From NCBI GenBank assembly GCA_013265495.1, contig MU058198.1:7455779-7519778 (forward strand): DNA of 64,000 bases, written 5' to 3'. The notes under the pieces are model-generated. The model was not told the origin of the DNA, made no database searches, and saw only the letters and a program-made list of their open reading frames with translations. This document shows positions 15,923-61,916 of this stretch, in pieces. Position 1 is the stretch's first letter. The number at the start of each line of letters is the position of its first letter. This stretch comes from Vicugna vicugna (Eukaryota). A program made the translations under genes and the position numbers.

Positions 15923-15928
15923 AATAAA
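15923..15928 (+). terminator. Probable RNF40 polyadenylation signal
   Basis: AATAAA about 1.06 kb after the RNF40 stop codon. Confidence 0.75.
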
Positions 15929-16289: not shown

Positions 16290-16360
16290 CGCAGTCATTG
16301 GCTACAGGGATGCTGGGAGCCTCGAGGCGCATCCTGGGAAATGTAGTCCCTTATTGGCAC
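16290..16360. promoter_or_regulatory. ZNF143/THAP11-type (SBS/ACTACA) promoter element with CCAAT boxes
   Basis: GCATCCTGGGAAATGTAGT at 16329-16347 (reverse complement ACTACATTTCCCAGGATGC); ATTGG at 16297 and 16353; in CpG-rich sequence. Confidence 0.7.
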
Positions 16361-16533
16361 CGGCTGACGAGATTCTCCGAGGTAAGACCCAAGTTCCCAG
16401 TTGTGCTGGTCAGAGGCAGGCTTGGACCCAGTCTATCCCCAACGGCTTTACCCGCCCCTTCCCCCCTCGGACGGACAGACAGGACATCTCAGCGGGTGAC
16501 TTCCTTCATTGCCATTTGTGCTGGCTGTTAGCC

Positions 16534-17016
16534 ATGTCCTCGAGAACCGTGTGTCGAATGGCGCTGTGGGTTCATCGCTCTGTCGGGTACGCGGGCGGAG
16601 CCTTCACCGAGGCTGCGCTGGGGCTCGCGCTCAGGCCGGTGCTGACCGGGCTTGGTGCCGAAACAGGAGCTGGAATTGGAGCCATGGCCACGGGAGCCGC
16701 TGCCGGCTTGTCAGCAGTCATGCCCTTGCGCACTCCCGCAGCATTATCGGCGGTAGCACCTTCGCGGGGGCTCGCGGCGTTGTCCGCCTTAGGGCCCCAC
16801 CTGGCGCCCAAAGTTTCGGAGGGTCCGCAGCAGCTGGACCAGGTCGGACTGGAGGCGGAGACTCGGGCTACGGTGACTTCCGGCGCAGGGCTGGCGGCAG
16901 TGGGCACGCTTGCTGAAGCTCTGGCCGCGGCGGGGGATGGCATCCGGCCGAGGAAGTGTCCGCGGCCCCGGGCAGTGGTAGTCAGGTTGGGTAAAACGCA
17001 GCGTATTGCATCATAG
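16534..17016 (+). CDS. Candidate uncharacterised 160-aa Ala/Gly/Leu-rich ORF, antisense to a decayed zinc-finger exon
   Basis: gccATG at 16534 directly after acceptor-like GCTGTTAG (AG 16530-16531); donor CGAG|GTAAG at 16382; TAG ending 17016; AATAAA 17208-17213. Coding status unproven. Confidence 0.3.
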   Translation: MSSRTVCRMALWVHRSVGYAGGAFTEAALGLALRPVLTGLGAETGAGIGAMATGAAAGLSAVMPLRTPAALSAVAPSRGLAALSALGPHLAPKVSEGPQQLDQVGLEAETRATVTSGAGLAAVGTLAEALAAAGDGIRPRKCPRPRAVVVRLGKTQRIAS

Positions 17017-17172
17017 AGATGCGGTCCGTCTCTGAGAGGAGTGCTGCGCCTGGAAGCCGGTCGGGGTCAGCCAATCCTCTGTGAGCACTGCCCTGTTTCC
17101 CAGGAGTCACCTTCACGTGGGCTCCTTAGTAATGCAAGTGACTGCATCACCTTCCCAAACATCTCTCCATAT
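16560..17172 (-). pseudogene. Decayed C2H2 zinc-finger exon (relic 1)
   Basis: Minus translation TLRF-TQPDY-H-CP-G-PRT-L; RPDAIPRRGQSF-SKRAH-C-RQ-P; SL-RLQSD-L-VQ-L-LRT-L. Keeps F-x5-L-x2-H-x3-H spacing, with several ligand codons one base from Cys/His; frameshifts and stops present. Confidence 0.6.
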
Positions 17173-19265
17173 CTAGAGGAGCTAAAAACTCGTGAGTTCC
17201 CACGCTTAATAAAGTAAGCATCGAACCATTTTCTCAAGCTGGAGCCCAAGAAAGTGCGATAAAGATCCCAGAATTTGAGTAGGAACATCAAGCACTGATG
17301 CTGCAGGAAGAGAGTAAACTCTCCATAAATCTTGGTTTGCAATTAGGCCGCCCAGTGCTGGGAAAATCTACTTTAGGGGCTGGTCAGGTCCCTCCATACA
17401 GGATGTTTGACCCCTTACAAACCCTTGTAGCCCTCCCTCAGTGGCTGTAATACCCTGGGCCCTTGGGATGGGCAGGCCAGAGGTCCTCCTGGACCAATGC
17501 TGACCTTGGTTGGCCTCTGAAGGTGAGCAGATACTGGCCTCAATGACAAAGGTACCTTTTCAGCCAGAATGAAGGCTGCTGTCTAACTGGTCACAGGGTT
17601 CAGTGGGGCATTTGAGGTTGACCACTCTCTTTAAAACTTCCCTTGGGTCCTGTAGTGCTACACTCCACTGGTTTTCCTCATATTATCTTCTGCTGGCCCT
17701 TTTTCTGCATCCACAAGCTTGATCGTCTCCTTTCTACTTCAGCTCTCTCCTTGGGTGTGTTTACCCAGGACCATGGCTACAGCTAGGATAATAAGGCCCA
17801 ACTCCTCCAGCACCACTTCTCTTTCTTGCGCTCCAGACCTGGTAAATAACCACCATTCATGGCTGGAGGTTAGGATCATGCCACTCTGCTTAAAAATCCC
17901 CCGATGGTGCCCTTTCCCCCAAGTTACTCAAACAAGATGCTCCACACTCTAGCCTGTGCTCTCTACCTTATCTCAATTCCTATCCCTCATTGCTCTAAGC
18001 CTACACCTAATTTATGCACCCTCTATCCCCCACTCCACCCTGGCCCCTACATACACTGTTTCCTGCTCCTGCAGCCTTCACCGTCAGATGACTTCCTCAG
18101 TTAGTTTCCCGACCCACTGCAGGCATCACATCTGGGTCCACAGCCCCTTCTGGTAAGTATGTACCAATGTGCTCCAGTGCTTATTCTTCCCCTGTAGCCC
18201 CCTCACTTTACTGATGACTCCTGTGCTGACGTCCCTCAGTGTCCCCAGGGCTGGAAACACAGGGAAGAGAGAACAGCCTTCCATACTCACCTCTATGTGA
18301 AAGGCAAGTCCCTCTTCTCTTCCCCACTTCTCCACCCCTTGCTTTCCAGATGGGGAAGGGGAAGGAGAGACAGTTGAGCCTGCCCTGGGAGCCTGGATCA
18401 GACAGGTAAAGGGAAGGTGGGGAGACAGCTTCCTGGCTGGGGCAGAAGGCCCCCAGCAGACTGAGGCAGAGGCAGGCAACAGGTTAGAGCAGGTGTTGAT
18501 CTCAAGCAGCCACTTAGAGGCCACAGCCAGATCTCGGCCCAAGAGATAGTGCTGAGGCAAGCCTGCATTGAGGATTCAGTGGAGCAACCCCGTCTGGCCC
18601 AGACAGTGAGGAGCCCAGGCCAGGCCCAGGCAGGCCCAGCGATGGGGGAGGACAGGCTTGGTCGGGTACAGAGCTTGCTCCTGGCCATTCTGGTTTCCCT
18701 CACCACCTTGCAGTAGATCTTAGGCAAATGGCTGCCCTTCTCTTAGCCTCACTCCCTCACACACTGGGGGCTCATGGGCTACATCCTGAGTGAGAACACA
18801 AGCCAGGTGTCCACCCACCTCTCCTCAGGGCCTAGGAGGCTCTGTTCTAAAGGAATGGTTAGGCCAGGTCCAGGGCCCAGGTGAACCAGGGGAAGTGGCC
18901 GCTAGCTTCTGGAGCTAGATCTTAGGCACTTTCCCTTGTGGCAGTCTGGGGAGGTGCAGGTGTTGAGGCACTAAGCCAGCCAGTGCCAGTCACCAGGCAG
19001 CCACCCAGAAGTAGGCACGTAATGCTGCTTGGCTCTGCCACCTGAGCACGTTTCTCCCTCTATCTCCCATGAGTACAGATTTTAAAATTCCATAAACCCT
19101 CAGGCTCCCACCAGCATCTGGGCACCTGGGGAAAGGGCTCCAAGTGTGGCCTCAGGCTGGGCTGTGCCTTTGAGGTGACACCTGGACGCTGCCCTGGGAG
19201 CGGACAGGCACTCTCAGCTTGCTTAAGGCTTGAAAGACAGAAAACACTTGGGAAATCTTATTCCC

Positions 19266-19271
19266 TTTATT
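19266..19271 (-). terminator. Probable distal polyadenylation signal of ZNF629 (3'UTR about 3.3 kb)
   Basis: TTTATT on plus = AATAAA on minus; a second candidate at 21332-21337. Confidence 0.55.
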
Positions 19272-22200: not shown

Positions 22201-22602
22201 CCTATTCCCTGCACTTCCCTGACCCTTTAGTTTCACAAGGATTTCAATACAGTTTTATAGGGTTGTCTAGAGACATATTGGGACCTCTTCCTACAATTAA
22301 TAGGGCTTTTATCCACTATGGTTTATAGGGTTTTTCTGCTACAGACTTAAAGGGCTTTTTTTTTTCCTACATATTTATAGGGTTTCTAACCCAACAGTTT
22401 TTCTCTACTACCTTATAAGAAGTGGTTCCCACCAACAATTTTAAAGGGTTTCTCATCACGGATGTAAAAGCGCTATTTTTACCCACAGTTCTTTATCCTC
22501 TTCTCTACAATCTGATAGGGTTTTCCTCCTTTCCCCACAGAATTTTTGGGGCGGTCCAGTGTTCCTCTCGGGAGAGAGAGGCCCCTGGTCTCCAGACCCA
22601 TT

Positions 22603-25364
<2,762 letters not shown>

Positions 25365-27399
25365 CCCAGAGCTCAGGATTGCCAGATGTTCAGGGACCTT
25401 GGGGGAGGAGAGAGACAGCACACAATAAGAGCTGACATCCTGCTTTCCTTTATTCCCCCAGCCCCACTCCTCCATCTGCGTGCCCCCCAGCCCTCATTCC
25501 TCCTTGCATGAACTTCAGTCTCCTACCTCCCCATTTTTCTGGGCATTCATTCTCACTGCGGCCCCCCTCCCCCTGGAGGCCTGATTCCTGCTCCAGATCT
25601 TAAGATCACAACTAAGCAAGTAGGTGAATTTAAGAGTGTAATTAAAAGCTCATCACTCATAACCCTTTGAACCCAGACTGGGGGCTGGAGAGGTGTCTGA
25701 CACCCACAAGGGGAAAGAGGCTCTCACCCCACCCCTCTGATGCCCAGAGGCTGGGAAGCCTGTTATTTTGCTAATCAGAGGAAGCTCATTAAGACTCTAA
25801 TTTTCCTCGTTAATGGGGCTGCTAATTGGGACCAATAAACTTTCCTTGTGAACAGAGAACTGAGACTGCCTGGAACACTTAAGGAGTTCAAAAAAAAAAA
25901 AGTAACCGCTCCGATTTCCCCGAGGGGACAGAGCCCTCCAAAAGACTGGGGCACTTTCCCGTTACCCAAGCACAGAAAGAAGGTCAGAAGTTGGGCGGAG
26001 GCAGTTTAAAGCTGTCAGGGGCTTCTGCAGAAACTACCTTGAGAGGAAAATGGAAAGGAAAAGAGAGAAGGGCTAAGTGTATGGAGACCACCTGGCAGCT
26101 GACGCAGTGCCTGCTGTGCTGTCCTCAGCAGCTCATCCAGTCCTCCCCACAATCCTGTGAGGTAGACCCAGGAATCAGGACGTCCATTGTACAGATTAGG
26201 GAATCAATGCCCAGGGAGATTTCTCCAAGGTCAAAGGCTAGGAGGTGGCAGAGTTAAGACCAGAAACACAAGGTTCTATGTCTGGCTTGTCCTAGCCTCT
26301 GAGAGAGAGAAAGAGAGCAATGACCTTGAGAGTCATGTGAAACCCATAAACGTGGGCAGCTGGGGAAAGCTCAGAGCCTGTTGGCCATGGGAATGGGAGG
26401 GAGAAATGCTTGGGACTAAGAGGTTGCCCTGGCTGTAAAAGGAGGCACTGGATCCTGACATTCTGCTTCTGTGAACTCGAAACAGAGAACTCCCCACTGG
26501 AGCCTTCCATTATCACTCCCATCCTGGTACCCCTTCTTCTAGCCCAGTTTTTGTTGCTGCCATATCCCATCCCTAACACATAATAAGTGCAAAGTAAATT
26601 TTGAATGAAAGATGAATGAATGAGATGCCGCTTGCTCTTAGAAAACCTGTTTGGTCCAATGCCTTTAAAGAGGGTGGCAGCAAAGGAGCAGCAGTTTAAA
26701 GTAAAACATAGCCAGCTGTCACTCCAAAAAGGGTGATATGATTCCAGGATGAGGGAACAGGGCCACAGGGGCTAAGTGCTAAGAGGAGAACTTCCCACAA
26801 CGTTTAGACCCTTAAGAGAGTCCCTGGGGAGGGTGTGGGCTTTGGGTGGCCAGGTGGGATGGACACTGTGTGTATGGGGGCAGTGGTGCAAGGAGACGCA
26901 TGAGGAGGCAGCTAGGTGGAAATCAAAGTGAAGCGGGAGCTAGCTGAACCCGGCCAAATAGCAAGGAGGAGAGATGGGAGTTAGATTTTAGGAAGTAAAT
27001 GAATTTCTTCATTTGCCGCAGCTCCCTAAGCTATGAGAATTCCCCACCCCCATCTGCAAGTGTCTTTGGGGAGGTGGAAGCCCGGACCTCCTCCCAGCTG
27101 GGGGGGTGCTTGACTCTTTAGAAGAGCCTTGCTGGGTTTGCTGAGGACAGGTAAGGGCTTAGGTACCTTTGATCATCTGGAGAAATTCAAACTCAGCAGT
27201 CGAGAGTAGAAGGGAAGGGGTTAATGAAGAAGCCAACACGCAATATGAAAGTGGGGAGACCCAGGGAAGCAAGAAGTGCTTGGGCCTGCACCGGCCTCGG
27301 ACCTCATGCCAGCCCCACTGCGGAGGGAGGGAGGGAAGAAGAGGAGGAGGCTGCCTCACAGAGAGGTGTGGAGATCGGCCCAGGGTGACCCTGACATGG

Positions 27400-30242: not shown

Positions 30243-30266
30243 GTGTGTGTGTGTGTGTGTGTGTGT
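30243..30266. repeat. (TG)n microsatellite
   Basis: Uninterrupted TG run. Confidence 0.9.
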
Positions 30267-35039: not shown

Positions 35040-35445
35040 TTCTTGCCTTCTAACAGGCATGAGGTGATACCTCATTGTGGTTCTGATTTGCATTTCGCTA
35101 ATGATTAGTGATGTTGAACTTCTTTTCATGTGCCTCTTGGCCATCTGTATGTCTTCTTTGGAAAAATGTCTATTCAGCTCCTCTGCCCATTTTTAAAATC
35201 AAGTAGTTTGAGTTGTTGTTATTGCTGACTTGTATCAGTTCTTTATAGATTTTGGATATTAACCCCTTATCAGATATATCACTCACAAATATCTTCTTCT
35301 GTTCGGTAGGTTGTCTTTTCGTTGTGTTGGTGGTTTCCTTTGCTGTACACAAGCTTTTTAGTTTGATGTAGTCCCATGGGCTTATTTTTCCTTTTGTTTT
35401 CCTTGCCTGAGGAGTCATATCTGGAAAGATATTGCTAAGACCATC
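35040..35445 (-). mobile_element. LINE-1 ORF2 fragment
   Basis: Minus translation WDYIKLKSLCTAKETT...KRQPTE.KKIF..DISDKGLISKIYKELIQ is L1 ORF2 C-terminal sequence. Confidence 0.88.
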
Positions 35446-37339
35446 GTGACAGCCCCTAGACCAGAACCCGGCATGAGTGAGCACTGGGTCACTGTCAATC
35501 CCCATCCCTGTTTTCGTGGAATACATGCTTCTGGGCTCCTAGTGATCATCACTTTCCTTATGGGTGTCTTAGAGGTTGAGCTTTGTCAGGTTATCATCAC
35601 TTGACTAATGGCTTCTGACTGCTGAGAGGTTCTTCTTTTGCTTTGTAGGTTTGTTTATTTCCAAAAACAGGTTCCTAAGGAGAACTATGAAGCCAGAGAT
35701 ATGCAGCCTTCCCTAAGATTAATGGCCTCAGATACTAAAAAGACACCGTTAAGTTGGTACCATAAGGGGGGATGAGGGAATCTGGCAGTTGTGTTTGTTT
35801 CTTTATTTATACCCTGCTTGGTTTCAAAAAGGACTTGAGGCCTTACAACAGGTGCCTGGCATCTAGTAAGACTCATAGCTGCTAAATGCTGGCCCTTACT
35901 GCTGATAGTAGCGGTAGTAATAGAAATAACAAGAGAACAAATAAAATGGCAAAGGGAAAAGAAGGGTGCAAATGATGATTAAATATGAATCCAGGTTTGG
36001 GACACAATACATATGTATAAAGCTCTGTTTGCACAATTACTAAAAGTGGGTGACAGATTTGCTGAGCTTTCTAAAAGCCCGAGCAAACACTGGGTACATA
36101 AACTCAGTGAGGCTTAGGAGAAGAACGTTCTCCTGTGAGCCCTCATCTACATGACGTTTTGCAATGCCAAGCACCACGTCTTCAACTCATCCCCCAATTC
36201 TGGATCCAGTCCAACACAGAGACAGATGGGCAAACAAAGCCGGAATGGCCCATGATGTGAGCGTGGTTGCATCAATTCAGCCAGTCATGTTTTTAAAGCC
36301 ACTGTTACAAATTATACATCCCAGCTATAAACAATCCCAACAAGGGGATTCACTACAACAGGTAACCTTTGGCTTTTTGGTAGATACACAGTATCTCCTC
36401 CTTGCCAGCTCCAGGAGCCACTCACAAAGAATGAAACATGGTGGCCCTAGCAATACCCAGCTGGTAAGAAGATGATATTGTTTCAAGCTGTTAAAGCGGA
36501 TAGTATTTGGAGGTTTTGTTGTTTATCCGGTTTTTCACTCTTGAGATCTGATCACTAGATTTGAAACAAGACTGCCTTTTACAGGGGCAATCAAGCTGTT
36601 CTGGCTTCCAGCTGTTCAGTCTCCAGATCATCTGTCCAGCCTTCTTCCTTTTTTCTCGATGTCCAGAGCCTATAACCCCAGAGGGCTTGAGTTTGATCTT
36701 CTTCCTTCTATTTTAACTAGCAACTTTTGTGCCAAGCATTTTCCACATTTTGCCATAACTCTGGCAGGTGGCAACTGCTGTCCCTATCTTATGCTGTAGA
36801 AGTAGTTCAGAGATATATGAAGTACCTTGCCCAAGGTCACCTTGTTAGGTAAGAGCTGTGATTTAATGCAGCCTCGTAAGGCTCAATGTCTTTCCTCTTC
36901 TCCATACCATGCCATCTACTCACCAATCATCCATCTGAGGGTCTGATTGAGAATTCCGTCTGAGTTAAACGTCAAGATATCTGGCCTTTGATTGGTATTA
37001 ATACTATCTTTCCTTCCCCTTTTTTGAAAATTGTGATTTCATTTGTCTGTCTCCAGTCTTTTGTACCTTCTCTTAAAGGAGTCAGGTAGCTTGGAGATCA
37101 TTGGCAAATTTTCTCATTTTCTTTGTGCAAGTCAGATCAGGAGGTGTGACTTAGTTAAAAGCAGCATGATGCTTTCTTAAAATTTCACACCTCCAATATC
37201 AGGTTTCAATTTTCTCTTACCAGTGTTGGTCATAAAACAAACCTCTTAGAGCTGAAATGAAAAAAAATAGAAAAGCCCGCACTTATCTGTGCTACAATCA
37301 ACTTGATTTTTATAATCATGTTTTTAAATAAAATATATC

Positions 37340-37477
37340 TTTTTTGTTTGTTTTTGGTGGAGGAGGTAATTAGGTTCATTTTATTTGTTCTATTTTAATG
37401 GAGGTACTGGGGATTGAACCCAGGACCTCATGCATGCTAAGCACACACTCTACCACTGAGATATACTCTCCCCTCTT
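37340..37477 (-). mobile_element. tRNA-Ala-like SINE (camelid Vic-1-like) with target-site duplication
   Basis: Minus reads GGGGAGAGTATATCTCAGTGGTAGAGTGTGTGCTTAGCATGCATGAGGTCCTGGGTTCAATCCCCAGTACCTCC + A-rich tail; flanked by AAAATATA(T/C)CTTTTT repeats at about 37330 and 37478. A 5' fragment of the same head lies at 34709-34740 (+). Confidence 0.85.
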
Positions 37478-39629
37478 AAAATATACCTTTTTGTTGATTG
37501 AAAAAAAAAAAAACTAGCCTCTTAATGCAGTTAAAAACCATGAAACACTATTTTTAACCTAACAGACTTTCAAATATAAATGGTTTGATTATGTACTACG
37601 TGCAGAAATAGATACTCTCAAACATTATTGGTAAGAGTTACATCTGCATGCACTGCCTCTTTGGAAGAAGGAAAATTTGGCTACACTGAAGAAAATGCCC
37701 ACACTCTTTGACCCAACAATTCTATTTCTAGATCCTACAGGCTTGGTGACACGTGGACACAAAGATGTATGCACAATCCTATGCATTGAAATATTGTTTT
37801 TATAGCAAAAGACTACAAATAACCTACAGGTCCACCAATAGGGGAGCTGATTAAATAAATTATGGTGTAGCCATATAATGGACTACTCAGCTGCTGTGAA
37901 AAAAGTGACATAGCTATGTACAAACTGACACGAAACATTCTGAGGAAAACCAAGTATCCACAATGTGCTTTCATTTTTGTGTTTTTCTAAAAGGAGATGC
38001 TTGCATATGCATAAACTGTCCCTAGAAAGATACATAAGAAACTGGTAACATGCTCACCTCGGGAGATGATGATAAAGGATGAGGCAGGAGGGTGGCTTGC
38101 TTTGCACTTTTACCTTTTTATACTATTTGAATTTTTTTTCAAAATATGAAAAGAAGTGAAAAAGAAAAATGTAAAAGAAAGCTTGGGAAACATCGACCCT
38201 CTATTGTACGGACATGGTTTTCCTTCCTGGAGAAAGTGCGGATGATCTTTGAACCACCGTGGCCTCACACTCCTCTTCGTGCCTTGGGTACCTTAAGTGA
38301 GACGCTGGATGCCTTGTTCTGATTAGAGTCCTGACACTAAACCACTAACTTGTGGAGTGATCCCGGGAAAGCTTTCTCAGTGTTAAGGCACAGAAATGAC
38401 AAGAAGAACAATGTCTGACCCTCTCCAAGCTTAAACCAGGAAGAGGGAGCCACATGGCCAAAGACATGGGGGCGGGGAGAGATTTCGTGCCCACCAACTC
38501 TAGTCCTTCATCTCCCATCATCCCTCACCCCTTTTACTCACAGCTTCAAGGCCCACCCTCCACAGGCTGCTCTCTTGCATGACTAACTAGTTGCTAAATC
38601 CCCAGGGAATGACAGGAAGAAAGGACAGCCACCCACATTCTCCAAGCTTCAGCAACTCTAAGGACCTTTAATAGTACTAAGCACTGGAAACTGCCCAGAG
38701 GGACCCTGAAGAGTCAGAACTGGAAGAAATAGCCAGTAAGGCTGGCCTCTGAGGTTTCCACTGGGTGTGTGAAAGGTTGGGTTGGATGGTAATTGTTTTT
38801 GCACATAAAAACTTTTTAGTTTATCCTTAAAGCATATACTCAATGCCTTTCTCTCTTTGGATGTCTGCAATTTGCTTTTTTTCAAGGTCACAAGATCCTT
38901 TTCTTTAAGCCAGGATTGTGTCCATTCTGGGGCAGCACCTTTCATTATTGACTTTTATGCTGTTGGAGGAATTAGGTGATTTTGCACAGCCTCCTCAGCT
39001 CTGGACCAACTAGAAATCCACGTCTCTGACATCACTATGGGTTTTGATGCTTTAGTCTGGCATGCCCAGAAAAAGTTTTTAAAATCAGAGATGCAGTGTG
39101 GAGGAGAAGAATCAGGCGCCCTGGAATCAGAGGGCCTTGAGTTCAAATCAGACTTGGACTCAGTTACATAAAATGGGAAGAAGAATAATACCCCCTTCAC
39201 AGAATCGCCTTACCGCCATGGAGCTAAGGTCTGTAAGGAACCTAGGAAGAAGGCCCTCAATAAATAGCAGCTCTTACTATCATCTGTATCATGTTCCTTA
39301 TTCTCATGTCACAAAACTGACCCTCTACTAATAGCCCTTTTTCAAAAAGGTAGCAGTAAAATAATAATAGGAGGAGGAAGAAGAAGGGGAAGGACAAGGA
39401 GGAGGAGGAGGAGAAGAAGAAGTAGCGTTTATTGAGCAATTACTACGTGTCACACTCTTCTAAGTGTTGACATGTATTAATTCCTTGAATCCTTACAGCA
39501 AGCCTTTAAGCTAGACATGGTTATGCTTGCGGATAGGAAAGCCCAGGCTCAGAGAGGTGAGATAACTGACCTTAGCTGAGCTGGGATAGAAACCCAGGCG
39601 GCGGGGCTCTGCTCTCCTGATCTAGGCAC

Positions 39630-40200
39630 CAGAACCATCAAAACGTCCGCCAGAGCGAACACCAGACCCCTCCGCCTTTCTCGGGGAGCAAGTGAACCAA
39701 TTCCTCCCAAGGCCGAGTTCGCCTGCCGGGGCCGAAGGGGTTATTCCCACTGAGACGCCGGCGCCCCGGGCTCCTAGAGCGGCCGCGCTGGGGGCGGGAG
39801 GAAAATGCGCTTCCGGCGGGTGTCGGGACTCGGGAATCCGACGGACTGGCTCGGCGCTGGGGCGCTCGGGCCCCGCCTCGGCCTGGGCCTCCCGGCGTGG
39901 AGGATGTGCCGGGGACCCGCGGAGGGGCAGGGCTCCGCGAAGGGCCTCCCTGGCCCGTGGGCTCCAGAAAGCGGGGGCTGGGAGCTGGGGAGCGGAGGGC
40001 CGGGCCGCGCAGACCAGGGCCCCCGCGGGGGGTGCGGGGAGGGGCGCCTGTGAACTTGGCCGCCCGGGAGGCTTCTGGTCTCGCCCCAGCGGGCTGGTCC
40101 GGGGAGGCGAGAGGCGGCGGCCGTTTCTCCTGGAAGGGCCAGCCGCCCGGTCCCTCCCCGAGACCTCGAACCTTCCCGAGCCCGGGGTAAGAAAGCGCTC
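39630..40200 (-). pseudogene. CpG-rich decayed C2H2 zinc-finger exon (relic 2)
   Basis: Minus fragments AGARPEASRAAKF, AHGPGRPFA, GSAFSSRP...RRLSGNNPF, WCSLWRTF resemble HTGE(K/R)P(Y/F)xCxxCGKxF units; no intact finger. Confidence 0.45.
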
Positions 40201-43200
40201 GCTCGTTCCTCCCCCCTCCCAAGTACTGGCCCGTCCGCCTCCTTAATCCCCGCAACCGCCCCGAGAAGCAGGTGGTATCACTCCAACTTTGTAGACGACT
40301 TATTTATAAGGTCAGTTTATAAACGAGCTTGTCCCGGACTCTCAGTCGGCCAGGAGCAGAGCCAGGACCGTGGCGCGCTGGTTAGGACCAGGGGCTCATC
40401 ACCCGGTCACGGTTGGAGGGACGCCTCCAGCATCAGGCTAACTTCTCTAAACTCAGCAGGCCTAAAAACCAACCAGGTTGGCATTTCGTTTTCTGGCAAG
40501 AGAGCTGGTTCATTCTAAGTAAAGTTGGAACCCCAGTTACCTTTTCTATTGCCGTTCTCCTCTGCTTTCCTCATCTTACCATCTTTTAGTCTTTTCTTCC
40601 TTTCTTTCTCCAACCTGTCTTTCCACTCCCACTGCCACCGTCTTTTTTTTTTTTTTTTTGCCCCTTTTTTTTTTGCAAACCTGAGTAAAAAAAAAAATGC
40701 CACTTTTATTGTGGCAAACCTGAGTTAATTGCAGTAACCTTCAAACCTGACTGCTTCCCAAGTTACTTCACATGCCACACCTCGTCACTTTACTCCACAG
40801 GTCCCCAGACCCTGGCATCCAGCCACTCCCCTGTTCAAAGAACCTTTTTAGTCTAAATAACTAAAGCTGTTTAGAGGCTCAAGTTGAACCTCTAGAGCAT
40901 GACCATTCAAGGCCATTTGAAACTTCACTTTAGCCCAGCTTTCTAACCTGATCTCTCTTGGTTCCCTAAATAGAGGTTCTGGACTGATAGCTACAATTGG
41001 AAAATGTGTTCCAACTGGTAGGCACTTTCTTTTTAAAATTCAAATTGCTATTTACTTTCACAGTGGAAGATAACATTTTGTTAAAAAAAAACAACCCAGA
41101 TTTCTGGTTTTTGATTCATCAATAGAGCTGGAAACAGATGGCCCAGGTTCTTGCATCTAGCAACTGGTTTGAACTGAGCGGTGTCTGCCCCCTTTTAGAC
41201 AAGGCTGCTTCCTAGTCCACCTTAGTCCTGTCCACTCCCAGATCCTCCCTGTCTCTGAGTCTGAGGGTCAGCTCTTGTGCATGCACTAATGTTTTTCCTA
41301 GAATAGAGAAGCAGGCTTTTGGTTCCTGGGTCTCCATCAAAAGTGCCCAAATGGAAAGGAAACCCAGAGGGACATGTGCGTAGATACAACAGAGGGGAAG
41401 CTCCCAGCCTCCTTCACCCATTTCCTTTTCTTTCTTGGACCCCATTTCCATTTGAATTTCCCACTCAGGCCCTACAGGAACCCTCACATATGGCCAGATT
41501 AATGCCTCACAGCCTCTCAAATGAACCCGAGGACCGTATCTTTGCACTATCTTCTCTAGTGAGTAAATTCTACTCAGCTATGTCCATAGCTAGTCTCCTA
41601 GTCTGTGAAACCTTTCCTGACGACCGTCATCCAACCAACTCCGTCTGTCTCATCAGCATTTCTGGAGGCCAGGCGCTGGGTTAGACAGGTATGACCCAAC
41701 CACCGTCATGTTTCCCTCCTCTGGATTTCTATAGCTGTGCCTGAGTCAATGTCCTAGAAAACATCTTGCACATGGTAGGCAATCAATAACGATCAACTGG
41801 TAAATGGCCCAGTCACACATGTCTTGTTCCTCTAGTAGGACTATAGTATATTTGAGGGCAGGGTCTAAGTTGTATCTGTCTTTGCACTGCCCTAGCAACC
41901 GTGACAATGCCTGGCACATAGAAGACGCGTGGTAATGGCTAAGGAAATATATTCCAGACCAGCAATAAATACCGAGTTTCAATCCTGTCCCATGGCTGGA
42001 AGCAGCAGCCCCCCAACACCACCCCCCAGCCCCTGTGGCACAGAGGAGTGGAGGGGGAGCCCCAGGGAAGAGAGAGGGGAGGCTTACTCAGTCCTGAAAG
42101 CCAGAAGCACCTCTTGGACCCTCAACCTGGAGGCTCTGCTCAGGATTCAGCCAAAGCTACATCTAGGACAGAGCTGTATCTATGTGACCTTGTGAGCAAA
42201 ACCCAACCTGATTCTGATTCTGAATTCCAAGCTCTAGAATAACAACAATGGTTATTGTGTACCGAGGTGCTCTCTGAGCCAAGCACTGCCCGGTGCTTCA
42301 CACCCATGGCCTTCCAGCCTCACCAGCGCCGTGGAGTCAATACTGTGAGTATATTCTCTTTACAGACAGGCAAAAGCTCTAATGCCTGAGTAACTCGCTG
42401 AAGGCCACAGAGTAACAGGCTGAGCCAGGAGCTAAGTCCACGTGGGCTGATTCCAGGGCTCCTGAGTTTAGCCCTGTGCTCATTCCAAATATCTGAGGGT
42501 CTACTTATTACCAGAGAACTGCACACTTAAAAATGGTTAAGATAGTAAATTTTATGTTATGTGTATTTTAACTCAATTTTTTAAAGTGAAAAAAAATAGT
42601 AGGCTAAAGGAGGATTTGGCTGAACTCAGGGACTTGGTCGTCAGCTTTATTTGGGTTCTGGATTATATCATTTTCTCTCACATCCTTCTTTAACTCTCTA
42701 CCTAAGGAATAAAAACATATATCTTCAGAACCAGTAAACTCTTTAAAAGCCCCAAGAGAAAACTTCAGATTAAAAAAAAAATCAGACTAACAATGTAGCT
42801 TCAAACTCTTGAATAACAAGCCTGTATTCACAGGAGGAAGTCACAAGGGGGAGAGGTAGCTTTGCAAAGAAAGAGCCAAGAGGGGACGCTATCATGGACC
42901 GAACACCTACTGTGTGCCAGGGATTGACAGGCGCTTTCGTATTTGATCTCACTGCGTCCTTACAAATATGAAGGTATTATCATCCCATTGTGTGGGAGAG
43001 GGAAGTGAAGTTTTGAAATGTTACGTAATTTTGCAAACGTTAAACTGATACTGAGGGCTGGAGCTTAGGTCAGAAACCAATTCTGGTAGTCAGAAAGGTG
43101 TCTGGCATTCATTTCTTCTGTGTCTCTGGATAGAATGATCCAGTCAAGGAAACTAACTAGTCCCTCACTGCCCAAACATTCCAGATTTCTCTCTCCTTGT

Positions 43201-45539
43201 ACTCCTGAGTTTTTTCAGATCTGTTACGTTTACAAAAGAGTCTTTTAAGACTTTCCCTCTTCATTACAGAAGTGCCCCGCACACAGTAGGTTCATTCCTT
43301 TATTCATTCTGTTAATGTGTATGAATGTTTGCTCTGGGCTCTTCTGGGCATTATAGATGTGGCTATGAACAACACAGATAAAAAAGAAATGAAAAAATAA
43401 AAATTGCTGCCCTCCCAGAGGTTACATTCTAAGGAAGACAGATAATGAACAAAATCACAAAGTGGGGAAGGGGGCTGGAAGTGTTGGGGTCAGGGAAGGT
43501 AGTGAAGTTTTGGATCAGGAGGCAGGGGGCAGGGGACTTCTCTGAGAAGATAAACTTTTATGTAAAAGACTGACAGGAAGTAGATGTGTAACAGCTGCCC
43601 GTCTGCTGCTCCCTCCAAGAACTCTGTAAAGAAGATCATCTAGATGGAGGAGAGAGACTCTAACACTATCTGCCATCCTTAAAGTCTTCCAGGATGGGGG
43701 GAGGGGGATCACAAAAAGGGAAGTTGATTTTCCTTCTCAACATTCCTTTTTGTTCTGATTTTGCCCTAGACCGTTTCTCACTACTCCAATCTCCTCCAAG
43801 ACTCACCTCTATTCTATCTTGTCTATCCTTCCCTTCTTTATCACAATTTCATCCAGGGTGCCCAAGAAATGAGGGGGCACCTGAGGCAGGTGGGCAGGGG
43901 AACTATCATGCTTCCTACCATTCCTTGGAGCCCCGGCAGGTTGTGGAGGGGTGGCGGGAGCAGGAGGTGGGCAACACTGGGAGATTCAGGAAACATCTGC
44001 AGGGGCAGATGGCCCAGAACAGTGGCCCAGATCTAAGAGTAAGAGGATTAAACACACAGAACCCAGGGAAGAAACAAAGACACATGTTGGTTTGTTTTGG
44101 TTTTCGCTATGTCTCTCTTTTTCAGTATCTCTTTGGTTATAATAGCTTCACTGAGATAGAATTCACATACTGTACAGTCCACTTAAAGTGGACAATTCCG
44201 TGATTTTTAGTCTAATCAGAGAGTTGTGCAGCCATCACCATGATTTCAGAACATTTTCATCACTCCCTGAATAAACTTCATATCCATCAGGAGTCACTTC
44301 TTGTTTCCCCTCAATCACCCCCAGCCCCTCCACCTCCTGTTCCCCTCCCCAACTCTAGGTAACCACAAATGTACTTTCTGTCTCTCTAGATTTCCCTAGT
44401 CTGCCCCTTTTGTGTAAATGGCCCGTTTTGGTTTTGGTTTTAGTTGACTTTTTTCTTCTTTTTTTGGAAGGTGGGTGGGTGAACCACTGAAGAATATTAC
44501 AGAGGTAGGTTTGGAACATTAGAAGTTGAGAAGCTCTTCCAGGGAAAGGAAAAGCAGAAGAGGAAAATAACTTGCTTCAGTTTTATTTTTTATTGCTCTA
44601 TTTCTTCTTTGTAAGTCACCCCAAGTGTTGGAAGGAGACAAATCCTAAGCAAATGAAAGTGAGTACTACTACAAATTAAATCCTCTCTTTTATTTCTGTG
44701 AACAAGTTTTTTTGCCTGTTTTTATACATGTATGCCTCCTGTTTTGCCCACACTGTAAAATGTAAAGGAGCATGGAGTCAAGTCAGAAAACCTGGTTCTT
44801 CCTATTAGCAGCGTGACTCAGCTACTCTCAAAGTTCTCTCTTCAGAAATTAACAACATTGTAAATTGACTATACTTCAATTTAAAAAATTATCTCTTCTA
44901 TAAAATGCGGGGGTTAAAGAACAGAGGATTATTCCAGTCCCCTCTTCAGCGTCATCTCCTGAACTGCAGGCAATCAGCCTTTCTGGTATCTGTAAACATT
45001 CCTTTTTAATTTTTAGGCTCCATCCTAGACATTTCCTCCATTCCTGAAACTTCTGGGTACAGAAAGTAAGGAGGATGAGAAGATAGCAATGTGAATTGCT
45101 TACAAGTTGTGTAACAGGTCAAACATTTATGAAGAGCCTTTACACCTTACCTAGGCTGTTTCATAGCTAGGAAGGAACAACTGGAAGGGACCTTAGAGAA
45201 CATCTAGTCCAATCCCTTCACATCGGGACGAGGAAACAGAGCTAGAATTAGGATATAACTTTTCTAAGGCCAAACAGCAAGTGAGTGCCAGAGTCAGGGC
45301 CAGTTCTGGCTTTCCGATGCCAGATGCTTTCATTTACACTAGAGGAAGCCAAAACCCAGAGGAGCCAGAGACCTCCATGTAGAATAGAGCCTGTCAGTCG
45401 GGGCAGGCTCCTTGGAGGTCACCTAGAGTCCATTTCGTCTTTTAACAGAGGCTTAGAAGAGGTGTCGGCCCTGGATCCAGACCTCCGAACTCGCACTGCA
45501 TCCTGAATGAATGTGATTGCAAGGGTTCTTGGGGGCAGA

Positions 45540-46130
45540 GGCACCTATCCCAGCGTCGGGCCGGGGCGATTACTCGGGGCGGGGCTCAGGAGGCCCGGCC
45601 TTTAAGGTCCCTTCCTTAGGCAGGAGCCTTCTAGATCTCCTTATAGTCTGGCCGAAAGCAGCCTATAGTTAGGCGCGCTGCGCGAGTCCGGGCTGGGGTC
45701 GTGTCCCTGCAGCCACGAGCCAATCCCAGGACGCGCCTGGATAGGGGCGGGATGTCCGCTCCCCGCCCCGCCCATTTTCCCTCTCAGCTGCAGGGAAGCT
45801 GGGCGGTGACCTAGGCAACCGCCCGAGCATATTGCCCACCTGCCAAATTTGCCTCGTCCCGCCCCTCTCGGCACGACCAATCGGAAAGCGAAGTCCTTTA
45901 AGGGGCAAAAGGAAAAAAAGGACAGCGATTTTGATTGGTTGGTTGGGTGAGCCCCAGTACAATCATTGGCGTTACCCTCGGGCTGGGGATACGGACGTCG
46001 CTCAGGTTGGAACGGTGAGCCTGGGAGAGACACTTTCCAGAAGCTGAGCAGAAGAAGAGTTTTGGTGAACTGAAAATTCGGTGTTTCCAATTCAAAGCTA
46101 CTGCTGCTGTCGTAGGTGTGGGCGACTGTA
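45540..46130. promoter_or_regulatory. Orphan CpG-rich promoter (NF-Y + RFX + GC boxes)
   Basis: CCAAT 45720, 45877; ATTGG 45934, 45965; X-box-like GTGACCTAGGCAAC 45806-45819; several GGGGCGG/CCGCCCC; plus-strand donor ACG|GTGAGC at 46015. Confidence 0.65.
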
Positions 46131-49720: not shown

Positions 49721-49917
49721 AAATTAGCTTTGAGATATAATTAACATACTATACAGTTCACCCATTAAAACTGCCTAGTTCAATGGGGAAGAGTTTTTTG
49801 CATATTACATTATTAACTTTAAAAATTGTGATAAATATATAAAACAAAATTTGCCACTTTAACATTTTTGAAATATGTAATTCAGTGACATGAATTATAC
49901 TCACAGTGTTGTGCTAG

Positions 49918-50502: not shown

Positions 50503-50506
50503 CTAG

Positions 50507-52340
50507 CATCACCACTACTTCCAAAACTTTTTCATCACTCCAGACAGAAACTTTGTGATCATTAAGTAATAACTCCTCATTTTTCCCTCCCCCTAGGTCA
50601 TGGTAACCTCTAATCTACTTTCTGTCTCAATGAATCTGCTTATTCTAGAACCTTATCCAAGTTGAATCATAAAACATTGTTCCTTTGTGTCTGGCTTATT
50701 TCACTTAGCATATTTTCAAGGTTCATCCAGGTTGTAGCAGGTATTAGAACTTCATTCCTTTCTATAGCTGAAAACTATTCCCTTGTGTGTATATACATTT
50801 GTTTATCCAATCATCCACTTTTTGACGATTGTGAATAATGCTGCAGTGAACATTGGCATACAAGTGTCTGTTCAAGTCCTTGCCTTCAGTTTGCCTGGAG
50901 TGCAATAGTTGGATCACATGGTAACTATGTTTACCTTTTTGAGGAGCTGCCAAACTGTTTTCCGTAGCTGCTGCATTATTTGTTAAGAATTATTTTATGG
51001 CATAACATATGATCTATCCTGGAGAATGTTCTATGTGTACTTGAGAATGAGTATTCTGCTGTTACTGTCTGGAGTGTTCTATGTATGTGCTTTAGGTCTA
51101 GATGGTTTATAGTAGTACAAGTTCTCAATTTTTTTATTCATCTTTTATCTTCTAGTTGTATTCATTATTGAAAGCAGGGTATTTGAAATTTCCAGCTATT
51201 ACTATAGAACTGCCTATTTCTCCCTTCACTCTTTCAATGTTTATTTGACATATTTTGAGGCTCCTCTGTTAGGTGTGTATATGTCTATAACTGTTACAAC
51301 TTGTTGTATTGAAACTTTAACCAATATATAATATCATTATCTCTTACTGCCTTTTTTGATTTAAAGTCTGTGTTTTCTGATAATAATAGAGCCAATCCAG
51401 CACCGTTTTGTTTACTATTTGCATATCATATTGAATATCTTTTTTCCATTATTTTACTTTCATCCAAAGTGAGTCCTTATTTTTAAAGGACTCTTTGTGT
51501 CCTAATATTTAAAGTGAGTCTCTTGCAGATAGCATATAGATGGATCCTGGTTTTGTTTTGTTTTTTTTAATCCAAGCTACTGATCTGTCTCTTATTGGGA
51601 AGGTTTAATCTTTTTACATTTAATGTGATTGCTGATAAAGAATAATTTACTTCTGCCATTTAGCTATTAGTTTTGTGTATCTTATATGTTTTTTTGTTCC
51701 TCAATTCTTCCGGACTCAAACTGGAACTTACCCCATCAGCTCCCCTGGGTCTGGACTTCTCAGCTTCTATAATTGCATGGGCCAGTTCCGTAGAAGAAAT
51801 CTGTTTATATCTGTATCTATCTGTCTCTCTAGCTATCTACCCTCTATTGTTTCTGTTTCTCTGGAGAACCCTGATTAATACCTCATTTTAACCCTTTTTA
51901 AGTGCACAATTCACTGGCGTGATATACATTCACAGTGTTTTGCAACCATCACCACTTATCCGTTTTGAAATTTTTTTTTATCATCTCAAACAGAAATCTG
52001 TACTCATTAAACAATAACTCCCTACCCACCTTCCCATTATCCCCTGGTAACTTCTATTCTACTTTCTATCTCTATGAATTTGCCTGTTCTGGGTACTTTA
52101 TATAAACAGAATCATTCAATATTTGTCTTTTTGTGTCTGGCTTACTTCATTTAGCCTAATGTTTTTAAGGTTCATCCACGTTGTAGCAGGTATTAGAATT
52201 TCCTTCCTTTTTAGGGCTGAATAATATTCCATTGTATGTATGTACCACATTTTGTTTATTCATTCATCTGTTGATGGACACTTGAGTTGTTTCCACCTTT
52301 TGGTTTGTGAATAGTGCTGCTGTGAACATGGCTGTACAAG
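50507..52340 (-). mobile_element. LINE-1 fragments (antisense) with a nested MLT2-like LTR piece at about 51710-51880
   Basis: Antisense L1 3'-end text (GTCTGGCTTATTTCACTTAGCAT, ATAATATTCCATTGTATG); TTCTGTTTCTCTGGAGAACCCTGATTAATAC is typical of an MLT2 end. Confidence 0.7.
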
Positions 52341-58300: not shown

Positions 58301-60729
58301 CAGTAGAGTTTTCACAGAAGGCAAGAGAGGAGGCCACTTTAGGCACGAAATCCCATACATCTGTGTTGCCTTCTTCCTTATTCAAGCTCAGCATCTGGGA
58401 CTCGGGGAGCTGAGGAAGCCTGGCGGAGGCTAAGGTCTTGGACTCTCTGAATCCTGACTCCACAACATCTAGGCTGTGCGATCTCAAGTGATGGACTTAG
58501 CTTTCCCAGACTCCAAGCCCTCATCTGCAGAATGGGAGTAGTGCTAGCATTTACTTCATGGGGCTGCTGTCAGGATTACACAAGATCATCTTTGGAAAGT
58601 CCTTTGATCCATGATTGGTCCACAGTCTAGGAGTGAATGAACATTATAAGTGCGTACACAGTGGGAGCAGGATGCACTGCCGGCTAATAGGATTGCTTCT
58701 TAAGTTCAGCCAATTATAGGGCTTCAGACAATAGTCAAATAGCCCCCTCACCACTTTCTATTACATGCCCCCTTCTCCTGATTCGATCTCTATTAAACAA
58801 ACCTATAGTGGGCAGGCTCTGTTTAATATTGTCCTTTCTCCAAAGCCACCTCCTGAAAATTGGCTTTCCCCCAAGTATGCCCCAAGTCAGATGATACTGA
58901 AGCTTGCCTACCTAACTGCATCTCAACCCTGTTTTCCAGGTAACCGTGGTGACGCTGCCTCCTCAACACAGCTACCTTCTGTGGATATAGGTAGGTATCC
59001 TCAGGCTCCTTACTTGGAGATACCACTGATGCTCGCCAGTAGCTTCTGACCATCTAACCTCCAGAAGAAAGAGAAGTGTGTGGATGACCATCTCCCAGCT
59101 TAGAAAGCTCTTCCACAGTATAACCTCCCTTTCATCCTCACAACTGCCCTGTGAGGTAGATATAGCAGATAATAACTACACTGGTCCACACGTATCAGGC
59201 ATTCACGATGGACCATGCTCTGTGTTCAGCACTTTCATAGGTGATCTCATTTAAACTCACCAAAATCCTATGAAATGGGCTCAGGCTTTCCATTTTACAG
59301 AAGAGAAAAATGGGGGCTCAGAGGGGTTAGACTTTGCCCCAGATCAAAGAGGTAGTAAGTAATAAATTCAGACCTCAGACTGACTCCAAAGCCACACTTT
59401 TAACCCTTCTTCAATATTGCCTCACAAAGCAAGTACATTTTTCCTCAGGTTATCATTCTGTCCTTTAAATTGAAGCCCAGAGAGGTAAAGTGACTTGCCC
59501 AAGGTCTCACAACCAGGAACTGGCCGAGCTGGAGTCCGTAATTGGATCTTCTGGCTCTGAGGCTCTTGAGACCATGAGGCTTCAGTGACTGGGTCTGACA
59601 ATACACTAGACAATTATTTCCGCAGCAGGTTTGCCGGGCCAACCCTGCTCAGCTCAGAACAATAATTCTCTGACAGTTTTCAGGAAATTTCTGTTTTTCT
59701 GAATCCCAAGAACCATCAGTCAAGAAATCGGGGAGAGAGGAAAAAGGATTGTAATTCTCCTGTGAGAGTTAATGCTTAACAATAAACAACCAGGCATTCC
59801 TGGTTTGAAGGAATCACTGATGTCAAGTAGAAAGCATGAGAAGGAAATGCTGACACATGGAGTCCAAGGTTAAGGTAGGCCTTTCTGGAACCTGGGATAG
59901 GCGCACATAGGAGAGAAGTGGTCATAATCTGATTAGTCTCTTTTGTAGCTGTTGCCATATTAGAAACATATTCATGGCCCTCCCTGCTGTTAACAGTGAG
60001 CCATTCTAACAAGTTAAAATAAATATTAATCTGTTTACATGTATATCTTATCCTATGACTGATGTTCCAAGAAATAAAAAGTTTTAGAAACAAGTCCTTC
60101 GATTGGCAATTTCAACACATGATTCTATGTAGTGCAGTTAATTTTGTTGAAGATTTAAACATTTTGTGATCTGAATACTACCCAATAATGTTCTCTGGTA
60201 TTTTCTCATTTCTGAATATTTGCTGTAGCCTACAGTTCTTTGTAACTACTACTACATATGTATTTCTTATTTATTAAAAAAAATAGAAAGTTATGAAAAA
60301 TACAGAATACCATGATTTCAGGAATTCCCAAGAGTTCCAATCTTTGAATCCCCAACTGTAGATTAATAACTGTTGGGAATTTAGAACTGGATGAAATTCC
60401 TAAGCAATTCAGTGGGATGGCAAACTGTGGAGAGGCCATCTTCCTTGGCCTCCAGGAAGGCTTCAAACAGGAGCTGGTCCTGGAGCAGAGCTTGGCTGGC
60501 CGACATCCCGCTAAAGGCAGAGGTCTGCAGTGTCACTTCAGGGAGCCAGGGGCTGAGCCGGCAGCGTTGGCCCTGGCATGGAATTTCTACGATGTCTCAA
60601 GTTTCTTCTCAATGGTTGGTGCAAATGTTCATTTTCATTTCAGGGGGGATCTGCTTGCTTTAGTATAAAAAGTGTTTCATACAATTATCACGGAAAAATG
60701 GATTGCTCTTCATTCGTGTACCAGCGGGC

Positions 60730-60950
60730 GGGCTGTGGAGTCAGGCAGGCAGACCTGGGTCTGAATGCTGATTCTGCCACATACTGGCTGTGTGACCTTG
60801 GGCTGGTCCCTTAACCTCTCTGAGACAGTTTTTCCTTCTGTAAAATGCTGATAATGAGAACACCAATGGCACAGAGATGCTGTGAAGACTGAATGAATCA
60901 TATAAATCACAAAGCCTGGCACAGAGTAAGCCCTCCACAAGTGGGAGACG
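60730..60950 (+). mobile_element. MIR SINE (one of many MIR/L2 remnants in the window)
   Basis: MIR core CTGTGTGACCTTGGGC...TTAACCTCTCTGAG...CTGTAAAATG and 3' part GCCTGGCACAGAGTAAG. Confidence 0.8.
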
Positions 60951-61715
60951 TGATGATTTCCTAGCACGACAGGCCCAGCAGTGGAGTGGGCAAGCACGAG
61001 CTTGCTTGCAGCCCTTGGAACCCCTCAGAGGGTCATTCGCCCCGGGCCTTCTCCAGCTGGGTCTGCTGGGGCGGCTCAGGGCTGTGCCACACGCTTCGGG
61101 TGCCCCCTCACCAGCCCGGGCCGCCTTCCCGGTTCCCACGCAGGCCCGCGGCGAGGCGGGCGCCAGGGTGGAAACGCTTCCCGCCCCCGTGGGCTCCCGG
61201 GGGAACTGGCGAGGCTGGCACCCTCAGGAAGCTCTTGCTGCAGGTCCTCCGGCGATCGACGGAACCCACCCGCGGGCCTAGCATCCGTGGGCCTGCGGGG
61301 AGGCGTTAGGTGGCGGGTGGGGTCGGGGTGGTGGGCGTGTGGCGCAGGGTCTCCGCGCAGGCGTGGCCCCCCCGGGCCTCCGCGCGAGGCTGCTGGAGGC
61401 CCGGCGCCGACTGCGCACTCCGAGGCCTCTGGCTGCGACGCGTCCTCAGGCGTCGGATGTGGTCCGATTGTGCCCGAAGCCCTCCCCATTCTTGGGGGTG
61501 CCGTTGAGCCCGCTCTGCGCGAGAGTCGGTGGCGAGCTAGCTGGGTGCTGGGACCTTAGGTTCGGGGCAGGCTGGGGCCGCTCGCCCGCGATGTTCCCGC
61601 GGCGGCTCTGGAGCTGGGAAGCCCTTTGCGCCCTCAGGGGCACGGGTGGGTGGCTGGCTGGATCTTGGGGCGGCCAAGGGAAGCCTAAGGGGCTCGCCTT
61701 CCCTGGGGAGCCGGC

Positions 61716-61916
61716 TCACCTCCCCTTTCCCTGGGGGATCGTCCGGGGAGCCCTCGGGGTCTTGCTTCCTCCGCCGGGAGCTCTGGGGTCCGGCGGCGCC
61801 GCCGAACTGGGCCGGGCGTGGGTGCGGAGGCCCCTCCTGGGAAGGAGCCGCCTGAGGGGCTCTGTTTTCAGGCCTTTCTCGTGGAGGGCTCTCCTTGTCA
61901 TCCTCACTCCCGAATC
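61716..61916 (-). CDS. BCL7C: Distal alternative last coding exon of BCL7C (BAF complex subunit), 66 aa + stop; upstream exons lie outside the window
   Basis: Acceptor TTCCTCCCCGCAG|GAT at 61916; peptide DSGVRMTRRALHEKGLKTEPLRRLLPRRGLRTHARPSS...RAPRTIPQGKGR* matches the recalled C-terminus of the long human BCL7C isoform; synteny RNF40-ZNF629-BCL7C; AATAAA on minus at 60275-60270. Confidence 0.78.
   Translation of the reverse strand, partial: DSGVRMTRRALHEKGLKTEPLRRLLPRRGLRTHARPSSAAPPDPRAPGGGSKTPRAPRTIPQGKGR

Follow-up and report, generated by a model that had tools for sequence, protein, structure and literature searches.

In CSB-PGBD3, the host protein owes a second C-terminus to an alternative last exon that was captured from a transposon together with its acceptor and poly(A) site. 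Here we describe a related arrangement at the BCL7C locus of Vicugna vicugna, in a 64,000-nucleotide stretch (the window; contig MU058198.1, 7455779-7519778, from a 2.03-Gb mammalian assembly) that also holds the C2H2 zinc-finger gene (ZNF) ZNF629. Unlike in CSB-PGBD3, the donor of the alternative BCL7C last exon would be a dead host paralogue whose original domain was discarded by out-of-frame reading. In tandem KRAB/C2H2-ZNF clusters, which evolve by birth and death, intact genes lie among broken finger exons and remnants that retain only KRAB, as in the cluster at this locus. The usual remnants of such clusters have lost their CpG and do nothing evident, whereas two probable relics here stay CpG islands and one of them is reused. 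An earlier note on this DNA had proposed that three CpG-rich patches (patch 1, 16500-17200; patch 2, 39600-40200; patch 3, about 60400-61900 of the window) are lost paralogues of a local ZNF cluster, a picture that is overstated by one. Our explanation is that BCL7C captured a dead ZNF629-type exon out of frame in patch 3, that patch 1 is a second relic and that patch 2 is unrelated; we put the probability of this explanation as a whole at about 0.75.

Several described systems resemble parts of this arrangement. In the rodent Peg3 domain, the ZNF genes Zim2, Zim3 and Zfp264 have no open reading frame (ORF) and are barely recognisable but still transcribed, and Zim3 lies antisense to Usp29 (PMC4196374, available parts). 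These genes are described there as non-coding RNAs and have intact placental orthologues; here, in contrast, no intact placental orthologue was found and patch 3 supplies new coding sequence to an unrelated gene. A further group is that of repurposed pseudogenes, duplicates once called pseudogenes whose translation has peptide support (PMC12679747). They keep the frame of their parent as separate genes, unlike the BCL7C exon, and BCL7C is absent from the main text of that paper. Human BCL7C isoform 2 (UniProt Q8WUZ0-2, 242 aa) has the same exon and 66-aa tail (PMC6862534) and was employed as a construct in PMC11983133; the available parts of both papers give no origin for the tail, to which we add a zinc-finger ancestry and a frame shift. 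Isoform 2 is thus already known, and the out-of-frame capture of a dead paralogue's exon is apparently undescribed. A literature search outside which most subscription papers and all annotation tracks lay found no zinc-finger origin for the BCL7C exon and no account of these relics. ZNF629 is not mentioned in the available parts of PMC3971581. BCL7C is not in the available text of PMC6886504, and BCL7C, ZNF629 and RNF40 are absent from nine of its supplementary files, files 1 and 8, which could bear on novelty, lying outside that count. The available part of PMC3295810 just places mouse 1700120K04Rik ~31 kb from Phkg2.

Results

A probable ZNF629-type last exon in patch 3

We compared the sequence that follows the AG at 61916 on the minus strand with the start of the last exon of ZNF629. 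The 50 nt after this AG and the 50 nt after the ZNF629 acceptor at 25136 are identical at 31 of 50 positions without a gap. The two starts are reciprocal best matches among 45,717 AG sites (next best, 27/50), and the match was reached by none of 100,000 shuffles. Read in phase 1, the second of the two exon starts, that at 25136, gives FGSEDDKESPPRERPE. The four intact upstream paralogues reached at most 21/50 against the patch 3 start, a comparison that covers the first four AG sites of each and probably does not include the true acceptor of ZNF689. Since the intron end belongs to the match, the copy in patch 3 would be genomic rather than a retro-copy.

To detect fingers, we derived a circular DNA profile that tolerates frameshifts from 48 fingers of the locus (19 from ZNF629 and 29 from upstream), with dinucleotide shuffles and profiles of permuted codon order as two nulls. 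The minus strand of patch 3 scored 13.5 bits (0/400 shuffles, 0/300 permuted profiles). The earlier note had seen C2H2 spacing on the minus strand of all three patches; the signal was clear at patch 3, weak at patch 1 (3.2 bits, 4/400 shuffles, 4/300 permuted profiles; 5.1 bits if extended to 17600) and missing at patch 2 (-1.2 bits, 69/400 and 169/300). On the plus strand, none of the three patches had a finger signal beyond 17/400 shuffles. Across nine parameter sets, patch 3 was always at 0/500 shuffles, patch 1 at 2-14/500 and patch 2 at 14-434/500. A 13-bit score over a KRAB-A remnant disappeared with a local background and was rejected. The profile over-scores GC-rich spots in AT-rich windows, and patch 3 was therefore re-scored on its GC-even core (60900-61700, minus), which gave 12.9 bits (0/400 shuffles, 0/300 permuted profiles). 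Among 32 control rows of island and strand, the highest finger score was 5.9 bits and the next 2.6. The fingers begin 266 nt after the acceptor in patch 3 and 380 nt after it in ZNF629.

A number of results weigh against a zinc-finger origin of patches 1 and 3. In a blind scan with the frameshift-tolerant profile, patch 3 ranked only 8th of 1,446 windows and permuted profiles reached its level about twice per scan; the finger score alone is therefore insufficient. All finger evidence comes from profiles built in this analysis, and the Pfam library gave no match in 15/15 patch frames or in 12/12 further proteins (11 orthologous ORFs and one patch 1 frame). Profile comparison gave weak matches, with E 0.006 between the antisense of patch 1 and that of ZNF629 and E 0.32 between the patch 3 linker and bilby ZNF629. 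One control row, on the plus strand of a promoter island opposite a KRAB remnant (upstream 77661-77799), gave the 5.9 bits with 0/100 and 0/100 in the nulls; this row, which comes close to patch 1, is counted as a false positive. A search for KRAB or exon-2 relics upstream of patch 3 found none (E<5, minus strand, 36 kb up to the BCL7C promoter). An old-frame search over 1.84 billion representatives did not find an intact paralogue and returned 11 proteins, all of them the same exon in other mammals and none with fingers; of these orthologous zinc-finger-frame ORFs, 0/11 carry a finger signal and most stop or shift frame before the fingers. The spliced-looking upstream pieces of some of these ORFs appear to map to no lost ZNF exon, and one seems to resemble a common repeat.

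Intact C2H2 motifs (C-x2-C-x12-H-x3-H) number 0 in the three patches and 19 in ZNF629, and regular expressions, tblastn and nhmmer with the ZNF629 fingers gave only sub-threshold matches outside ZNF629. The best of these were nhmmer E 0.51 at 61242 and 0.6 at 16928 and blastn E 0.012 at 61635. A DNA search of the own genome with each patch returned only the patch itself. The earlier note had also counted codons one base from Cys or His as remains of zinc ligands. We dropped this criterion, as about a quarter of all triplets pass it (20-27% on either strand of the patches and likewise in the RNF40 promoter island).

All of the resemblance could be chance in GC-rich DNA, with the BCL7C alternative exon arising de novo from an orphan CpG island. 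The missing library match, the false windows of the blind scan and the permissive ligand criterion fit such an origin, as does the fact that the length of 50 nt was picked after the match had been seen. Against it, the acceptor match was the best non-self match at all five lengths (36, 50, 60, 75 and 90 nt; ~40,500 AG-anchored sites), survived the shuffles, and is independent of the finger score while lying directly upstream of it on the same strand. We consider a chance origin highly improbable. Collectively, the exon-start match and the finger score appear to be two independent signals in the right order and spacing, with acceptor, linker and finger array of a ZNF629-type last exon apparently all present. 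This suggests that patch 3 (61916-61150, minus) is very probably the decayed C2H2 terminal exon of a lost ZNF629-type paralogue.

BCL7C appears to read the exon in a new frame

BCL7C exons 1-5 lie on the minus strand, 32-35 kb beyond 61916. ZNF629 enters its acceptor in phase 1 (its exon 2 ends in phase 1), whereas the donor of BCL7C exon 5 is in phase 0, as the canonical last exon requires. With a phase-0 donor and an acceptor built for phase 1, the linker is therefore read one base out of register, giving the 66-aa ORF. The proposal of the earlier note that patch 3 serves as an alternative BCL7C exon is borne out by this junction and by the conserved tail; that the frame is not the ancestral one is our addition.

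Homologues of the 66-aa ORF number 15 among 376 candidates, and 11 of these carry the name BCL7C. They come from carnivores, ruminants, a bat, rodents and three afrotherians, with no marsupial among them. Read in the BCL7C frame, the 13 aligned homologues of the 15 are 71-92% identical to the window, compared to 55-79% for the 12 rows that were read in the zinc-finger frame of the same DNA. Invariant positions number 35 of 66 in the BCL7C frame (14 rows) and 8 of 66 in the old frame. In deer, 60/66 residues are identical in the BCL7C frame and 50/66 in the old one, and in cricetid rodents 56/65 and 43/65. The contrast between the frames has a Fisher p of 0.016, which is slightly optimistic as deer were entered as 60/65 instead of 60/66. 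It also counts against the reading that the two frame comparisons draw on differing species sets and that the BCL7C models may be projected from one another. The splice junction and the conservation in the BCL7C frame come from database protein models rather than from Vicugna vicugna reads, and on these models the exon appears to be spliced in frame to BCL7C and conserved in its new frame across placentals.

The alternative tail is basic (17 R+K, 4 D+E) and the canonical 41-aa tail acidic (2 R+K, 8 D+E). BCL7A contacts the nucleosome acidic patch with its N-terminus and has a disordered tail that may make additional contacts (PMC11983133, available parts). With the alternative exon, this nucleosome-binding type of SWI/SNF subunit would likely carry a disordered tail that is basic instead of acidic, which may alter contact with DNA or the nucleosome.

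Other observations concern the exon and its tail. In some database models, different upstream exons are joined to the acceptor at 61916 such that the old phase-1 frame is read; one of these models, from red deer, bears the name 'proline-rich phosphoprotein-like'. In a model from Fukomys, cardiotrophin-2 is fused to BCL7C and the product ends in the 66-aa tail. A metagenome scan gave two weak partial matches (44-47%) among 131 candidates, which were not used.

A second probable relic in patch 1

The minus frame of patch 1 (~17010-16790) reads as three compressed fingers, including GQSFSKRAH and SLRLQSDLVQ. The plus strand opposite carries an ORF that is aligned with this frame codon for codon, and ZNF629 has a matching codon-aligned antisense ORF at 23116-24804. 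The patch 1 ORF has 14 orthologues with 51-97% identity (cluster members named from cattle and reindeer), and the island is therefore old and shared. A model of antisense residues gave 18 bits for the window (0/500) and 11-20 bits for 14 of 14 orthologues (0-2/500); their majority row, at 19.2 bits, was not clearly above the window. With this scoring, patch 1 ranked first of 1,068 CpG-rich rows and beat composition-keeping codon-permuted nulls 500 times in 500. Over 12,366 rows in 298 kb it ranked 1st-3rd, with no permuted hit in eight scans for each of three training sets, and was the best row apart from those of the upstream relics. No KRAB or exon-2 relic was found upstream of patch 1, and its two pyrimidine-rich AG sites (17300 and 18250) do not resemble paralogue starts.

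These results may also be read as only patch 3 being a relic, with patch 1 a GC-rich island in a long RNF40 3' untranslated region (UTR) whose Gly/Ala/Val-rich plus frame mimics the antisense of a finger array. In favour of this, patch 1 reached just 2-5 bits when frameshifts were allowed, less than one of the control rows, and was outside the top 30 of 1,446 windows in the blind scan. The plain frame-locked model placed it 10th-11th of the 12,366 rows, where it was outranked by rows of the upstream relics and, for one of the training sets, by a control row as well. In eight scans, permuted profiles equalled its frame-locked score five times. Its signal is concentrated at codon positions 2+3 (11.8 bits) and is nearly absent at positions 1+2 (1.1 bits). 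The strongest result came from the antisense model, which was chosen after the antisense ORF had been noticed, and we therefore hold patch 1 to be probably, rather than almost certainly, a relic. Against the mimicry, the composition-keeping nulls were beaten, the permuted scans with the antisense model were empty, and patch 1 is on the right strand in the same codon alignment as the antisense ORF of ZNF629 itself. We regard mimicry as unlikely. Patch 1 (17010-16790, minus) is thus in our view probably a second finger-exon relic with about three pseudo-fingers in one frame.

We next considered the antisense frame of patch 1. A signal in codon positions 2+3 but not 1+2 is expected if the first position of the finger frame became the wobble position of the antisense ORF, and the pattern hints at past selection on that frame. 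A test of such selection gave 1-5/400 against uniform decay. Against matched GC-biased decay it gave 0/9, 5/153, 5/174, 5/57, 18/213, 5/76, 29/161, 7/100 and 1/15; in most settings 3-18% of the matched simulations equalled the asymmetry, so that GC-biased decay can mimic it. The starts and ends of the plus-strand ORF vary, and at least 2 of the 14 orthologues have a frame shift in the core. The ESM Atlas gave no usable match for the ORF, and a protein search of the own genome gave one additional hit (E 9.2). It is in our judgement improbable that each of the relics gave rise to new protein in a frame other than the ancestral one, patch 3 through a shift on the sense strand and patch 1 as a small Ala/Gly/Leu-rich protein in antisense.

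A long RNF40 3' UTR ending at 17208 would run antisense across the patch 1 relic, and would explain the antisense arrangement equally well as a transcription unit of its own. Six RNA runs shared 0.35-0.37 of the sequence words of 15500-17600 and gave no evidence on the transcription of patch 1. If patch 1 is transcribed, the available description of Zim3 and Usp29 would be the closest model for patch 1 and RNF40.

Patch 2 and other islands

The largest codon-level finger excess at patch 2 was 1.0 over 42 rows, and a KRAB search of the patch gave no hit. All three patches could be relics, with patch 2 decayed below detection: it has one 66-nt finger-like traceback (39950-39885), a z of 2.0 in the first Viterbi test and, in its best case, 14/500 shuffles. 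Its plus strand scores equally, however, and eight of the nine parameter sets gave 27/500 or worse, which together with the codon-level and KRAB results makes a set of three relics improbable. That patch 2 is a finger-exon relic at all is distinctly unlikely, and it is best treated as an ordinary orphan island. Of the lost paralogues proposed earlier, this leaves patch 3, with acceptor and fingers, and probably patch 1.

Two further islands were observed. A fourth CpG island of the window, with CCAAT and GC boxes, lies at 45500-46063 and is absent from the earlier note; it has a weak finger-like stretch on the minus strand (46063-45955, 7-41/500 shuffles). Another orphan island, without a clear finger signal, lies in the long BCL7C intron at extended coordinates 86001-86500.

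CpG retention and loss in the cluster

To compare relics across the cluster, 200 kb upstream and 34 kb downstream of the window were also analysed. The ratio of observed to expected CpG (o/e) is 0.82 in patch 1, 0.80 in patch 2 and 0.71 over 60900-61950. The remainder of patch 3 described earlier as CpG-rich, 60400-60900, is not (9 CpG, o/e 0.29). Upstream, there are four intact finger exons, all on the minus strand and each a CpG island (o/e 0.63-0.86), besides three sites with broken KRAB exons and three with broken finger exons. These agree with the view that the local cluster loses members. The three dead upstream finger exons have o/e values of 0.08, 0.20 and 0.14, as the expectation that dead finger exons normally lose CpG predicts, compared to 0.85 and 0.82 in the finger parts of patches 1 and 3. 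Since the upstream dead exons lost CpG, the retention at patches 1 and 3 is real. Two of the three upstream relics have stronger finger scores than patch 3 and one is about equal; patches 1 and 3 therefore look at least as old, yet kept their CpG. This supports a lasting germline hypomethylation of both patches, as read from CpG o/e.

The contrast does not establish co-option as the cause of retention. The relics may be real and have kept CpG through their own sequence, as pre-existing unmethylated islands, with BCL7C splicing later or incidental. This is compatible with a relic origin and changes only the causal arrow. The intact finger exons here are already CpG islands, the CpG-rich 3' UTR part of patch 3 has no coding constraint, and patch 2 and the island at 45.5 kb persist without known use, all of which favour it. 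On the other hand, the loss of CpG from the three other dead finger exons means that persistence is not the default, and both relics that kept CpG sit at likely transcript ends. We give the own-sequence explanation somewhat less than an even chance.

Locus layout

The window runs from the end of CFAP119 through RNF40 (plus strand, stop near 14877) to ZNF629 (minus strand). The names CFAP119, RNF40, ZNF768, ZNF764, ZNF688, ZNF689, ZNF785 and PRR14 follow human synteny. A homologue search with ZNF629 gave matches that include ZNF629 itself in bilby. The features of the locus and the upstream relics are collected in Table 1. A purine-rich stretch at 31339-31217 (minus) has weak similarity to the ZNF629 linker region (E 0.02-0.08) and may be chance. 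At 37399-37470 (minus) there is a tRNA-like match of 44 bits, probably the head of a tRNA-derived short interspersed element. An AT-rich interval has an open frame at 35173-35538 (minus) that resembles the end of LINE-1 ORF2.

Table 1. Features of the BCL7C-ZNF629 locus and of the upstream cluster (window positions, unless marked as contig positions)
Feature	Position	Strand	Basis or remark
Coding part of BCL7C alternative last exon, 66 aa + stop	61716..61916	-	Phase-0 acceptor 61916; phase 1 corresponds to the acidic linker opening a ZNF629-type last exon
Putative frameshifted C2H2 finger relic, now CpG-rich 3' UTR of BCL7C alternative exon	61150..61650	-	Tracebacks 61650-61405 and 61243-61169; CpG o/e 0.82
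AATAAA, likely end of BCL7C alternative exon	60270..60275	-	~1.65 kb from acceptor; sequence motif only, presumed to be used
Patch 1, probable relic of about three pseudo-fingers in one frame, ligands mostly lost	16790..17010	-	Frame-locked profile 10.6 bits, 0/200 permutations
160-codon ORF, codon-for-codon antisense to patch 1 finger frame	16534..17016	+	DNA conserved; 14 orthologous ORFs
AATAAA just past patch 1	17208..17213	+	Read from the sequence alone; would end either RNF40 (distal site; proximal signal 15923) or a separate plus-strand RNA
Patch 2, single-copy orphan CpG island, no finger or KRAB signal detected	39500..40400	.	Profile, KRAB and own-genome searches
ZNF629 last coding exon (living paralogue)	22603..25136	-	Phase-1 acceptor at 25136; 19 intact fingers; named by homologues
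ZNF629 second exon, vestigial KRAB-B-like	25292..25397	-	Ends in phase 1; nhmmer with local KRAB-B exons, E 1.4e-6
Broken KRAB-ZNF gene between 2nd and 3rd intact upstream genes	contig 7331500-7333450	-	KRAB-A E 3.6e-6; KRAB-B E 3.4e-15; CpG-poor finger remnant 26 bits
Broken KRAB-ZNF gene	contig 7361900-7363250	-	KRAB-A E 2.5e-7; KRAB-B E 2.9e-8; CpG-poor finger remnant 12.8 bits
CpG-poor broken finger exon, strand opposite to cluster	contig 7323900-7324650	+	~70 bits
KRAB-A (E 3e-28) and KRAB-B remnant, no finger exon found	contig 7341100-7341450	-	KRAB search; presumably about the place of human ZNF785

Discussion

We propose that ZNF629 was not always the end of the minus-strand ZNF cluster. 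Beyond it, on the strand of BCL7C and ~32 kb downstream of exon 5 of that gene, there would have been a genomic duplicate of a last exon of the ZNF629 type, with acceptor, acidic linker and finger array. Once the duplicate had lost its own upstream exons, its acceptor would have been the next one within the reach of BCL7C when the normal last exon is skipped. Entry in phase 0 would turn the acidic linker into the basic 66-aa tail, and the fingers would drop into the 3' UTR and decay. Selection would have shifted to the new frame before the split of Afrotheria and Boreoeutheria. Patch 1 would be a like relic, kept as an unmethylated island and probably lying inside a plus-strand RNA, and patch 2 an unrelated orphan island.

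This history would give a traceable origin to a placental-wide tail that looks de novo, namely the out-of-frame capture of a dead transcription-factor exon by a SWI/SNF subunit. The locus also offers a built-in comparison for the persistence of CpG islands, as the dead finger exons of a single cluster include some that lost CpG and others, older-looking, that kept it. If both relics did give rise to new protein, then finger exons that are CpG islands in GC-rich clusters would quite generally be places where new coding sequence and orphan CpG islands originate. Together, these results suggest that unrecognised gene fossils exist among the orphan CpG islands near ZNF clusters.

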